10,410 nt of DNA from an uncultured archaeon. GTDB lineage: Archaea > Asgardarchaeota > Heimdallarchaeia > Heimdallarchaeales > Heimdallarchaeaceae. Below the pieces are notes generated by a model that saw nothing but the letters and a program-made list of their open reading frames with translations, did no database searches and was not told the origin of the DNA. The stretch spans positions 1 to 10,410 of the forward strand of contig CAZHRF010000054.1 in assembly GCA_964534625.1 (NCBI GenBank), given 5' to 3'. A program made the position numbers and the translations under genes. The stretch's first letter is position 1; each line of letters starts with the position of its first letter. This document shows, in pieces, positions 1,954-6,206 of the stretch.

Positions 1954-3693
1954 ATGCAAAAACAAAGAAAATGGAAGTATATTCCAAGTATCCCATCTGA
2001 AATTGAAATTAAAAATATGCCATTAATTGAGATGTTTCGAGAAACTGTTGATAAATATCCTGATCGAAAGTATCTTCATTTCATGGGAAAAGATAAGACT
2101 TATGCTGAAGTTGACGAAGAAGTCAATAAATTTGCGCATTCATTGAAAGAATTAGGAGTAAAGAAAAATGATGTAGTTGCTATCTTAGCTGCTAATTGTC
2201 CCCAGTATGTTGTAGCCTTTTTTGCTATACAATCAATAGGCGCTATTAGCACGGCAATTAGTCCATTATATTCTGAAAAAGAAATTAGATTTCAACTTGC
2301 TGATAGTGGAGCTAAAGTTATAGTAACTATTGATCTGTTTTTGGATAGAATCAGAAAGGTTCAAGAAGATACAGATCTTGAACATATTATTGTCAGTTCT
2401 ATCGCTGATGAATTACCTGTCATTAAAAAAATATTGTATAAAGTATTTAAAGGCATTAAAGACCCTAAAGTTAAAGATGAAATTAAATATAAAGAATTTA
2501 TTAAAAGAGGTAAAAACACCCGTATCCATGTAGATATTGATCCAAAAGAGAAAGTCGCTGTTCTTCAATACACAGGTGGTACTACAGGTGTGCAAAAGGG
2601 TGCTATGCTTACAGACTTCAATTTGGTCTCTCAAAGTATTATTGTTAGCAATTGGGATCTATGGATCGGAGATAAACGTCCTAAAGGACAATATCTTACA
2701 GCTGGAGTACTACCTTACTCACACATTTTTGGTTTTACTTCATCATTCTTATGGCCAACATATATTGGAGCGCAAATATTCTTAGTTCCTAATCCCAGAG
2801 ACCTCCAATATATTATGTCAATAATCGATAAATATGGTATTCACTACCTAAATGCTGTTCCCGTACTTTTCCAGAAAATGGCAGAACATGAAAAGGTTGA
2901 CAAATATGATCTATCATCTTTAGTTATGTGTATTGCGGGTGGAGAAACACTTCCTAAGACTACTGTGAAAAAGTTTGAAGATAAAACGGGTAATATACTA
3001 ATAGAAGGATATGGTTTAAGTGAAGCATCACCTGTTACCCATGTTAATCCTGCTAGAGTAGAAGATAGAAAAACCGGATCAATTGGCATTCCGATCCCTA
3101 ATGTTGATGTTATTTTAGTTGATCCACAAACTAACAAAGAAGTGACTGAAGAAGGTAAAAGTGGTGAGATATGGGTTCGTGGTCCTGGAGTAATGAAAGG
3201 ATACTGGAATAACAAAGAAGCAACCGATAATGTTTTTGAGAAAGGTTGGTTAAGAACTGGTGATGTTGCAACTATGGACGAAGATGGGTTCTTTACAATT
3301 GTTGATAGACTCAAACACATGATTATTGTATCAGGATACAAAGTTTGGCCTAGTGAAGTGGAAGAAGTACTTTACAATCACGATGCTATTAATATGGCAG
3401 CTGTCGTACCAACTGAAACTGAGCATGGAACAGTAGTTAAAGCCTATCTAGTTAAAGAAAAAGGATATGATGAATTAGGATTGAATGAAGTAAGAACGTA
3501 TTGCAAGAAACACATGGCACCATACAAAGTACCTAAAGCAATCGAATATACAGATGAACTTCCTCGTTCACCATTTGGTAAAGTCTTAAGACGAGCATTG
3601 GTTGAAAAAGAGATTTCTCGAGCTGCAACAACTGAATCAGGTGCAGCAAATCTAGTTAAAACAACACAAAAAATTTCAAAGACTCAAAAATAA
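1954..3693 (+). CDS. fadD: Long-chain-fatty-acid--CoA ligase (FadD/LcfA-like, ANL superfamily)
   Basis: AMP-binding motifs LQYTGGTTGVQKG, EGYGLSEASP, GEIWVRGPGVMKGYW, GWLRTGD, IVDRLKHMIIVSG, PYKVPK, PRSPFGKVLRR. The FadD-type N-terminal region (IIVSSIADELP) is present. Start moved from 1891 to the ATG at 1954, which has an SD-like GAGG; the upstream extension overlaps the promoter. Confidence 0.9.
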   Translation: MQKQRKWKYIPSIPSEIEIKNMPLIEMFRETVDKYPDRKYLHFMGKDKTYAEVDEEVNKFAHSLKELGVKKNDVVAILAANCPQYVVAFFAIQSIGAISTAISPLYSEKEIRFQLADSGAKVIVTIDLFLDRIRKVQEDTDLEHIIVSSIADELPVIKKILYKVFKGIKDPKVKDEIKYKEFIKRGKNTRIHVDIDPKEKVAVLQYTGGTTGVQKGAMLTDFNLVSQSIIVSNWDLWIGDKRPKGQYLTAGVLPYSHIFGFTSSFLWPTYIGAQIFLVPNPRDLQYIMSIIDKYGIHYLNAVPVLFQKMAEHEKVDKYDLSSLVMCIAGGETLPKTTVKKFEDKTGNILIEGYGLSEASPVTHVNPARVEDRKTGSIGIPIPNVDVILVDPQTNKEVTEEGKSGEIWVRGPGVMKGYWNNKEATDNVFEKGWLRTGDVATMDEDGFFTIVDRLKHMIIVSGYKVWPSEVEEVLYNHDAINMAAVVPTETEHGTVVKAYLVKEKGYDELGLNEVRTYCKKHMAPYKVPKAIEYTDELPRSPFGKVLRRALVEKEISRAATTESGAANLVKTTQKISKTQK

Positions 3694-3702
3694 TTAACGT
3701 TC

Positions 3703-3745
3703 TTTTTTATTTTATTTTATTTAATTTTATTTAATTTAATTTATT
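3703..3745 (+). terminator. T-rich terminator-like tract built from seven tandem TT(T/A)AT pentamers
   Basis: T6 at 3703-3708, with TTTAT TTTAT TTTAT TTAAT TTTAT TTAAT TTAAT at 3706-3740, starting about 10 nt after the fadD stop. No GC hairpin. Confidence 0.55.
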
Positions 3746-3904
3746 CTTACGCTTGTACTCTCAATTTTGTTGGTTTTTAGCTGATTTCATATTTATTATT
3801 CAAATCACCCTTGTTTTTGAGACAGTACTATTTTTTTTGATTTGTAAAACAATACTTTTATTGATTTTCGAAGAATTAGATTGAAGGTTTTACAATTGTT
3901 TACG

Positions 3905-3967
3905 GGAAAATAATATAAATAACTATAAAAGATATAAAATTTAGAGTAAAACGTGCAATATATGGAG
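3905..3967 (+). promoter_or_regulatory. Putative BRE+TATA promoter(s) and RBS of the spt-like gene
   Basis: GGAAAA-TAA-TATAAATA at 3905-3921, ATAAAAGATATAAAA at 3925-3939, and GGAG at 3964-3967, 8 nt before the ATG at 3976. Confidence 0.5.
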
Positions 3968-3975
3968 AATTATTT

Positions 3976-5309: not shown

Positions 5310-5314
5310 ATGAA

Positions 5315-5349
5315 CTTTTTTCTTCTGTCTTTTTTCTTCTTTTCCTCTT
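5315..5349 (+). terminator. Pyrimidine/T-rich terminator-like tract downstream of the spt-like gene
   Basis: About 35 nt of almost pure T/C with several T4-T7 runs, immediately upstream of the next TATA box. Confidence 0.45.
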
Positions 5350-5357
5350 GCTCTAAT

Positions 5358-5370
5358 GAAAATATAAATA
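5358..5370 (+). promoter_or_regulatory. Putative BRE+TATA promoter of the alpha/beta hydrolase
   Basis: GAAAA-TATAAATA ending 30 nt before the ATG at 5400. Confidence 0.5.
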
Positions 5371-5399
5371 AAGTGCAAATGATTTGTCATACCGTTGCT

Positions 5400-6206
5400 A
5401 TGAAATATTATACTACTAATGTCTTCGGGAAAAAAATCGGATATTACTCCAACAATAAACAAGGAGTACCAACAATATTCCAAATTCATGGCTTAGGAAG
5501 TAGTTCAGAATACTTTAAAAAATTAAACTGGACAATAGAAGGAGAGTTTAATATTGTTGCTGTAGATCTAGTTGGATTTGGTAAATCCGATAAACCAGAG
5601 AATTTTCATTATTCTTTAATGGAACAAACGATTCTACTCGATCAACTTATTGATATTTTAGATCTTAAAATCTATGCCATAGTAGGTTTCTCGATGGGAG
5701 GTACCATAGCAGTTTTATTAGCTGAAATGCTTTTGCCTACTAATCTCTATAAACTCATTCTTGTGGAGCCTGTACTTGAATTTGAAGATTTGTCAAAAAT
5801 TACTTTAAGGACAGCTAAAATGCCTTTATGGCAATTAAAATTGAGTAGAGTTATTTTCCCCTTATATGAAATAGTTCCCATACGAATTTACTTAAAAAGG
5901 AAAAAGAAAGAAAATAGGAAAATAGTTTCAAGAGGTTTAAAAAACAGTTCAACTCTTGCTTTACAAAAATCCGCCTTTATGTTAGTGAGTCAGCTAAAAA
6001 ATAATGGATTACTTGAACAATTTCTTAATACAAAATGTGAGAAATACTATATTATAGCAGATAGCACAAAAGAAAACATGACGGAAGAAAAACTTACAAA
6101 AATACGCCAAAAAGCAGAGTTAATTATTATTCTAGATGCAAAACATGTGGTAATGTTAGACAATGAAACTAGGTTCAACGAAGAAATTAAAAAAATATTA
6201 ACATAG
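5400..6206 (+). CDS. Alpha/beta-fold hydrolase (Abhydrolase_1/6-like)
   Basis: Oxyanion IHGLGSS, AVDLVGFGKSDKP, nucleophile elbow GFSMGG, LILVEP, and C-terminal catalytic His in AKHVVMLDN. Start moved from 5310 to the ATG at 5400 (MKYYTT...). Confidence 0.9.
   Translation: MKYYTTNVFGKKIGYYSNNKQGVPTIFQIHGLGSSSEYFKKLNWTIEGEFNIVAVDLVGFGKSDKPENFHYSLMEQTILLDQLIDILDLKIYAIVGFSMGGTIAVLLAEMLLPTNLYKLILVEPVLEFEDLSKITLRTAKMPLWQLKLSRVIFPLYEIVPIRIYLKRKKKENRKIVSRGLKNSSTLALQKSAFMLVSQLKNNGLLEQFLNTKCEKYYIIADSTKENMTEEKLTKIRQKAELIIILDAKHVVMLDNETRFNEEIKKILT

Follow-up and report, generated by a model that had tools for sequence, protein, structure and literature searches.

Candidate genes for sphingoid-base synthesis in an Asgard archaeon: an SPT-like synthase, a FadD-like ligase and a KdsR-like reductase

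Introduction

Sphingolipids are ascribed to eukaryotes and to some bacteria. Whether an archaeon may also encode the enzymes that build their long-chain (sphingoid) base is the question raised by the DNA described here, a stretch of 10,410 nucleotides (the window) that corresponds to bases 1-10,410 of contig C54 (16,863 bases) from an uncultured member of the Heimdallarchaeaceae. Three consecutive open reading frames (ORFs), all on the + strand, encode a FadD-like ligase, an alpha-oxoamine synthase resembling serine palmitoyltransferase (SPT) and a serine hydrolase, an arrangement that a first-pass annotation of the window had described correctly and had read as a candidate sphingoid-base locus. 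In the present analysis the ligase and the SPT-like synthase keep their places in that reading, the hydrolase does not, and the reductase lies on another contig, C58. The locus is read here, with moderate confidence, as part of a predicted archaeal sphingoid-base module that comprises the ligase, the synthase and a KdsR-like reductase elsewhere in the genome and from which the hydrolase is excluded. The synthase itself is an enzyme of a known kind in an unexpected domain of life, the Archaea.

In a 2024 metagenome and lipidome study of the Black Sea, Spt-like genes were recorded in 38 bacterial phyla and in no archaeal genome, and archaea were stated never to have been reported to make sphingolipids (PMC11334938). 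A 2026 study associates eukaryotic sphingolipid metabolism with Asgard archaea at the level of the pathway (aELW 0.80 for map00600), leaving the enzymes unnamed (PMC12872458). No report of an archaeal SPT or Spt-like gene was found in the literature searched, which included a search for serine palmitoyltransferase together with Asgard. The genome that contains the window consists of 120 contigs (3.37 Mb) and is estimated to be 89.8% complete, with an estimated contamination of 2.6%. The features of the locus that are discussed below are the following.

1954-3693 (+): FadD-like long-chain acyl-CoA ligase with AMP-binding and AMP-binding_C domains; the ORF opens at 1891
3694-3975 (+): AT-rich spacer of 282 bases between ligase and synthase, read directly from the sequence
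3976-5202 (+): Spt-like pyridoxal 5'-phosphate (PLP)-dependent alpha-oxoamine synthase of 408 amino acids, assigned from PDB and NCBIfam matches, tree position and residues
5379-6206 (+): alpha/beta-fold serine hydrolase (GFSMG motif; Abhydrolase_1/6 domains), in an ORF open from 5310

Results and Discussion

Family and active site of the synthase

The synthase matches Aminotran_1_2 at 4e-60 and is a member of the alpha-oxoamine synthase family. Its best match in the PDB is the SPT of Sphingobacterium multivorum (SmSPT; 349.9 bits, residues 15-404), followed by Thermus-type alpha-oxoamine synthase/KBL (274 bits), Escherichia coli KBL (243.6 bits) and Sphingomonas SPT (234-239 bits), and then by the weaker matches to cysteate acyltransferase (210 bits), BioF (at most 207 bits) and LCB2 (166-182 bits). 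The sequence identity is approximately 49% to SmSPT, 36% to E. coli Kbl and 31% to BioF. Among the NCBIfam models, the highest score is obtained with the SPT of Bacteroidota (SPT-CFB, NF047600; 455.8 bits); the runner-up model reaches 396.7 bits, and the KBL and BioF models reach 386 and 369 bits.

The crystal study of SmSPT names the residues that bind PLP, serine and the acyl chain (PMC10196870), and their equivalents are conserved in the synthase. The PLP lysine and the His/Asp/His set are represented by K253, H145, D219 and H222 (Lys244, His138, Asp210 and His213 in SmSPT); further conserved equivalents are N58 (Asn52), Y60 (Tyr54), G86/S87 (Gly80/Ser81) and T250 (Thr241). In the wall of the acyl pocket, the segment Y26-P27-Y28-F29 aligns with Y25-A26-Y27-F28 of SmSPT, which contains Tyr27/Phe28. 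Judged from 12 archaeal sequences, the residues for catalysis and substrate binding and those of the N-terminal Y-x-Y-F segment are invariant across the archaeal clade described below. The KBL-like paralogs of Asgard archaea align with the synthase only from residue 48, and the first 47 residues, which hold the acyl-pocket wall, are not shared by them. On the basis of these sequence features, the synthase is assigned to the SPT-like branch of the PLP-dependent alpha-oxoamine synthases, and it is probably soluble and of the bacterial type.

Phylogeny of the synthase

Trees of the synthase were constructed from its homologues in archaea, 76 homologues from named bacterial genomes, paralogs from Asgard archaea, and Kbl and BioF of E. 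coli. The archaeal homologues form a clade (100/100) that contains Heimdall, Loki, Thor and Thermoplasmatota sequences, with the Thermoplasmatota synthases nested among those of Heimdall and Loki. This clade, a second small Asgard group and bacterial sequences together form an Spt-like clade (99/99), and bacterial homologues 45-52% identical to the window enzyme are encoded in epimerase-Spt-GNAT clusters. Among the 76 bacterial loci, a CerR-type epimerase lies directly upstream of the synthase gene in 22 and a bCerS-type GNAT of 374 amino acids directly downstream in 20, and several contain a PAP2 gene; the epimerase-Spt-GNAT loci are the known bacterial ceramide clusters. Ding et al. 2024 use as their criterion the placement of an Spt with ceramide-gene-linked Spt sequences, apart from KBL and BioF (PMC11334938), and the synthase takes this position, inside the 99/99 clade and apart from Kbl and BioF. 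Additionally, a grouping of the archaeal Spt-like clade with the KBL-like paralogs is rejected by the approximately unbiased (AU) test (delta lnL 80, p = 0.0006). The assignment of the synthase as SPT-like rather than BioF or KBL, which had been proposed from the window alone, is therefore upheld by the PDB and NCBIfam scores, by the 99/99 clade and by the AU test.

The second small Asgard group (L033-L037, from genomes G178, G089, G165 and G094) is 46-52% identical to the window enzyme and has a basal position in the Spt-like clade; its members have neither a ligase nor a short-chain dehydrogenase/reductase (SDR) as neighbour.

A KdsR-like reductase as probable partner of the synthase

In the Heimdall relatives, whose synthases are 65-71% identical to that of the window, the commonest neighbour of the synthase is not a ligase but an SDR of 273 amino acids, which lies directly upstream and co-oriented in seven distinct loci; four loci lack this gene, and two are cut by contig ends. 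An SDR is also found directly downstream of the synthase in all six Thermoplasmatota loci examined and in 13 bacterial loci. The best NCBIfam model for the SDR is 3-ketodihydrosphingosine reductase KdsR (NF049977), which gives 244.8 bits with the copy in the genome under study and 326.8 bits with a Thermoplasmatota copy, generic SDR models scoring 20-50 bits lower. The copy of this genome is located at the end of a contig (C58:13937-14734) and is 53% identical to the synthase-adjacent SDR of the relatives. The first-pass annotation had recorded the lack of a ketosphinganine reductase, which holds for the window but not for the genome, and the genome-wide search for a KDSR-type SDR that it recommended yields this candidate.

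The two genes also tend to occur together. Among 201 sampled Asgard genomes, a synthase of the archaeal clade is present in 15, an orthologue of the SDR in 12, and both in 9 (Fisher p = 8e-10 for the whole phylum and 0.004 for the family alone, with relatives that are not independent of one another). The Thermoplasmatota SDR is 49-52% identical to the bacterial synthase-linked SDRs, as against approximately 43% to the Heimdall SDR, and it lies on the opposite side of the synthase; the pairing of synthase and SDR therefore appears to have more than one origin.

In two single-contig genomes of the family, the SDR is far from the synthase (G026:C1:97228-98022 and G074:C1:297186-297980). Each of these matches contains one TAA stop inside, which may be an end-of-gene effect or the mark of a broken copy.

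The ligase and its link to the synthase

The ligase ORF extends over 1891-3693. Translation probably begins at the in-frame ATG at 1954, since alignments with homologues cover nothing before residue 22-26 and GAGG is present upstream; the start that had been assigned earlier is thus retained. The protein matches AMP-binding and AMP-binding_C at 1e-93, and its best NCBIfam models are long-chain-fatty-acid--CoA ligases (491.9 bits).

Evidence for a link with the synthase comes from other genomes. Tight, co-oriented FadD-synthase-SDR clusters are present in six of six Thermoplasmatota loci, with gaps of 68-105 bases between ligase and synthase and of 12-47 bases to the SDR, and the ligase of one such cluster (L017) is 53% identical to the window ligase over the full length with one gap. 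In a second Heimdall-like contig (L052), the ligase and the synthase are followed by a RING and membrane-protein pair as in the window, without the hydrolase. The four-gene order of ligase, synthase, RING protein and membrane protein is therefore common to both contigs, and the hydrolase is the sole insertion in the window. In the ligase tree, the sequences of the window and of L052 share a single clade (100/99) with the six Thermoplasmatota ligases encoded in clusters and with the Heimdall-family ligases that are not linked to the synthase. This clade stands apart from other Asgard ligases; the ligase tree thus mirrors the synthase tree, which fits a joint transfer of the two genes.

The fadD-spt adjacency that the first-pass annotation had put forward is accordingly conserved in part: it is borne out by all six Thermoplasmatota loci, by L052 and by the matching trees, whereas most Heimdall relatives have an SDR upstream of the synthase instead and ligases that are unlinked. 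As judged from these comparisons, the functional link between ligase and synthase appears to be real but patchy, and in this genome the ligase may feed its product to the synthase.

The RING and membrane-protein pair, the second member of which has 691 amino acids, occupies 6237-9613 in the window and L052:4769-7239 in the second contig, with identities of 40% and 31%.

The hydrolase

The hydrolase ORF extends over 5310-6206, and the database gene model begins at 5379 and encodes 275 amino acids. Abhydrolase_1/6 domains mark the protein as one of the alpha/beta-hydrolase fold, its nucleophile elbow reads GFSMG, and its PDB and family matches indicate only a generic likeness to esterases, lipases and polyhydroxybutyrate depolymerases. 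Only 12 homologues are found at E <= 1e-10, the best of which is 36% identical, and the one homologue neighbourhood that was inspected contains unrelated genes. The hydrolase does not lie beside the synthase in any of approximately 25 other archaeal and 76 bacterial loci, nor beside the ligase in other loci. It is probably a chance neighbour that is unrelated to the system, and the earlier suggestion that it releases or remodels acyl chains is not sustained.

Candidates for later steps

The epimerase encoded on C54 (C54:14823-15836) was considered as a CerR and rejected, being 25% identical to the cluster-linked CerR-like proteins and located beside a hydrogenase operon. GNATs near the synthase in four archaeal loci were considered as ceramide synthases and likewise rejected; they do not constitute one family, and none is in the window.

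A GNAT of 205-210 amino acids is encoded divergently just upstream of the Spt-like gene in two loci of a second Heimdall/Thor subclade (L018:5248-5880 and L148:3210-3827). These two GNATs are orthologous, 43% identical and embedded in a conserved gene order, and may represent an N-acyltransferase partner.

Two Thermoplasmatota clusters are flanked by sulfotransferase, arylsulfotransferase and epimerase genes (L146:885-2012, L147:867-2135 and L147:7799-9218). The flanking sulfotransferases hint that the long-chain-base lipids of these clusters may be sulfated; from the Black Sea, sulfated deoxyceramides of unknown origin have been reported (PMC11334938).

Proposed pathway

The pathway proposed for these proteins has three steps, the substrates and the product of which are predicted. 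The FadD-like ligase would convert a fatty acid, probably a scavenged long-chain one, to the acyl-CoA; this role of the ligase in the present genome is predicted as well. The synthase would then condense this thioester with L-serine, or possibly with alanine or glycine, to a 3-keto long-chain base, with release of CO2 and CoA. Finally, the KdsR-like SDR encoded on C58 would reduce the 3-keto base to a sphinganine-like amino alcohol.

Weighing of the evidence

Several observations weigh against a sphingoid-base module. The scores of all three proteins lie below the curated cut-offs of their best models. The synthase, at 455.8 bits, is below the NF047600 equivalog cut-off of 640 bits; the Spt proteins of Geobacter and Chondromyces from ceramide clusters (556-568 bits) are likewise below it, and it is passed in none of 41 sampled Bacteroidota genomes, 27 of which score 443-517 bits, a range that includes the score of the synthase. 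This cut-off is narrow. The ligase, at 491.9 bits, is below the FadD cut-off of 766 bits and misses every other equivalog cut-off, so that its chain-length preference can only be predicted. The SDR, at 244.8 bits, is below the KdsR cut-off of 400 bits, as are all archaeal copies, and it is assigned for this reason by best match and gene context; among the control genomes, only that of Bacteroides thetaiotaomicron passes this cut-off.

The phylogeny weighs in the same direction in part. The tree was built without the characterised SPTs of Sphingomonas, Caulobacter, Bacteroides and eukaryotes, and in it the archaeal sequences and the sampled bacterial Spt-like sequences (which include ten Bacteroidota) are sister clades, the former not nested within the latter. 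A position of the archaeal clade outside the bacteria and the second Asgard group is not rejected by the AU test (p = 0.37), a result that carries no information on KBL versus Spt, on which the test with p = 0.0006 does bear. As a sister group that is not bracketed by characterised enzymes, the archaeal clade derives its predicted function from shared features and gene context. The phylogenetic comparison that the first-pass annotation had called for thus sets the synthase with Spt-like enzymes and apart from BioF and KBL, but as a sister group and in a tree without characterised alphaproteobacterial and eukaryotic SPTs.

Gene organisation and missing partners are the remaining adverse points. 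Orthologues of the ligase are present in 18 of 21 genomes of the family, where their genes show no linkage to that of the synthase, and some of these genomes have no synthase. The ligase is followed by the 282-base AT-rich spacer, with terminator-like T-runs just past the stop codon and TATA-like stretches, and GGAG precedes the ATG of the synthase; the spacer suggests that the two genes are separately transcribed in this genome, in agreement with the reservation about separate promoters and terminators made at the outset. In the search for a ceramide synthase, tblastn of the 89.8%-complete genome with a bCerS-like neighbour protein from a bacterial cluster gave no match, nor was there a tblastn match for a PAP2_3 protein. 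The Lag1/TLC profile PF03798 had no match in the genome and was equally silent in the control genomes, so it is uninformative either way.

These points lend some weight to an alternative in which the synthase belongs to the Spt-like branch, its product is something other than a membrane sphingoid base, and the adjoining ligase is a chance neighbour. The enzyme might, for example, use a different amino acid or acyl chain, or give a signalling or secondary-metabolite amino-ketone or a product of fatty-acid detoxification. This alternative draws on the seemingly separate transcription of ligase and synthase, the family-wide and mostly unlinked ligase orthologues, the lack of a ceramide synthase or head-group enzyme among the genes found (with the Lag1/TLC search uninformative), the sister position of the archaeal clade, and the sulfotransferases beside two Thermoplasmatota clusters, a hint of unusual products. 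It is nevertheless unlikely, although it deserves serious consideration, because the serine- and acyl-pocket residues of SmSPT are kept, the partnership with a KdsR-like reductase recurs in three separate arrangements, and cysteate acyltransferase is a far weaker match than SPT (210 versus 350 bits). A stronger form of the module, in which ligase, synthase and reductase constitute an old archaeal pathway that is sister to the sampled bacterial Spt-like enzymes and no recent acquisition from a single bacterial phylum, through which Asgard archaea and Thermoplasmatota make sphingoid bases from fatty acids in addition to their isoprenoid ether lipids, and the Asgard version of which gave rise to the first two steps of sphingolipid synthesis in eukaryotes, is decidedly doubtful. 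The full three-gene unit, in which the hydrolase would free or remodel acyl chains for use in the pathway, is very improbable: the enzyme is a serine hydrolase encoded beside the synthase in the same orientation, but it is missing from all the other synthase loci that were examined, L052 with its otherwise identical gene order among them, its homologues are few, and the single neighbourhood viewed is unrelated.

The database label of the synthase, 8-amino-7-oxononanoate synthase, is given to its homologues by several sources, and the KBL and BioF models still reach the scores noted above, in line with an ordinary KBL (glycine C-acetyltransferase) or BioF. Such enzymes would be expected with other partners; the lack of biotin and threonine dehydrogenase genes, first noted for the window, extends to the whole of contig C54, and in the 89.8%-complete genome no Tdh was found with the TIGR00692 profile or by tblastn with E. 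coli Tdh, nor BioB or BioD by tblastn with the E. coli proteins, while the tblastn matches of BioA are generic aminotransferases (24-28% identity). KBL-like paralogs do exist in other Asgard genomes, two of them adjoining tdh, but they score best with KBL-type models and form a separate clade, outside which the window enzyme lies (AU p = 0.0006), and the identity of the synthase to SmSPT clearly exceeds that to Kbl and BioF. The KBL/BioF reading is largely refuted by these results and is extremely unlikely to be correct. A bacterial contig in an archaeal genome bin, which would remove the archaeal novelty, might be suspected from the bacterial type of the enzymes and from a bin of 120 contigs with 2.6% estimated contamination. 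However, synthase orthologues with 66-67% identity are present in two single-contig genomes of the same family, the archaeal synthases form their own 100/100 clade, and the contig shares the RING-finger membrane genes with another archaeal contig. Additionally, the closest homologues of the synthase and the hydrolase carry the names Heimdallarchaeota or Heimdallarchaeaceae, and an Arf-family GTPase is encoded on contig C62 of the same genome. The host is an Asgard archaeon, as the first-pass annotation had supposed, and contamination, being unlikely on every count, is scarcely credible as an explanation.

A second alpha-oxoamine synthase paralog is located at the end of C62 (G000:C62:13754-13984), where it is cut by the contig end; over its first 60-80 residues it is 36-41% identical to Kbl or the window enzyme. 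Related genomes contain up to three such paralogs, namely an Spt-like one, a tdh-linked KBL-like one and one of a third group.

If the sphingoid-base module is real, a lipid derived from fatty acyl chains would stand on the archaeal side of the lipid divide, and the association of eukaryotic sphingolipid metabolism with Asgard archaea, reported at the level of the pathway (PMC12872458), would have a definite set of genes behind it. The assignment of environmental sphingoid lipids to source organisms would also change. The archaeal Spt-like clade, with reductase and ligase, occurs in the closest archaeal relatives of eukaryotes.

Other genes of the contig

The remaining genes of C54 encode PepT, two membrane proteins (the RING-finger protein and its 691-residue partner), HycI, a NiFe-hydrogenase operon, the epimerase and TrmB. 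The NiFe-hydrogenase operon comprises four genes (large, small, FAD/NAD-binding and Fe-S subunits) just past the window (C54:10553-14511), and the HycI maturation protease gene lies on the same strand within the window (9703-10206). The stretch is present in only four sequencing runs, all of DNA and from one microbial-mat study, which is possibly its own source; no RNA run is listed as containing it.

Comparison with known systems

Like SmSPT (PDB 3A2B, 8GUH) and the SPT of Bacteroidota, which are of the soluble, homodimeric bacterial type, the archaeal synthase has approximately 400 residues, and its alignment with SmSPT spans the N-terminal acyl-pocket segment to the C-terminus with the key residues kept. 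It differs from SmSPT in about half of its residues, in its separate archaeal clade, in its score below 640 bits and in its archaeal host. Kbl and BioF of E. coli have the same fold and the same type of reaction, a decarboxylative Claisen condensation between an amino acid and an acyl-CoA, but they lack the N-terminal segment and do not belong to the Spt-like clade, and the enzymes that act with them in their pathways were not found in this genome.

The ceramide cluster of Caulobacter includes an acyl-acyl carrier protein (ACP) synthetase, and the archaeal locus resembles this cluster in having an Spt-type synthase beside an adenylate-forming fatty-acid-activating enzyme. The bacterial ceramide gene set consists of Spt, bCerS and CerR, with an ACP in addition in Caulobacter, as Stankeviciute et al. 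2022 are cited in PMC11334938 and PMC12872458. The archaeal loci differ from these clusters in that they have no linked ACP, bCerS-like GNAT or CerR-like epimerase and contain a classical KdsR-type SDR instead, which implies that the keto-base would be reduced while still free, the order followed in Bacteroides and eukaryotes, and not after N-acylation. BT_0972 of B. thetaiotaomicron is a characterised 3-ketosphinganine reductase (PMC9278070); the archaeal SDR resembles it in that its best NCBIfam family is KdsR (NF049977), and differs in that the archaeal copies are below the 400-bit cut-off and that the copy of this genome lies outside the window.

The eukaryotic SPT (LCB1/LCB2) is a membrane-bound, heteromeric enzyme with small subunits, and the similarity of the archaeal synthase to it is much weaker (166-182 bits to LCB2) than that to the bacterial enzyme. 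The two chemical steps proposed for the archaeal synthase and reductase are nevertheless the same as those of eukaryotic SPT and KDSR.

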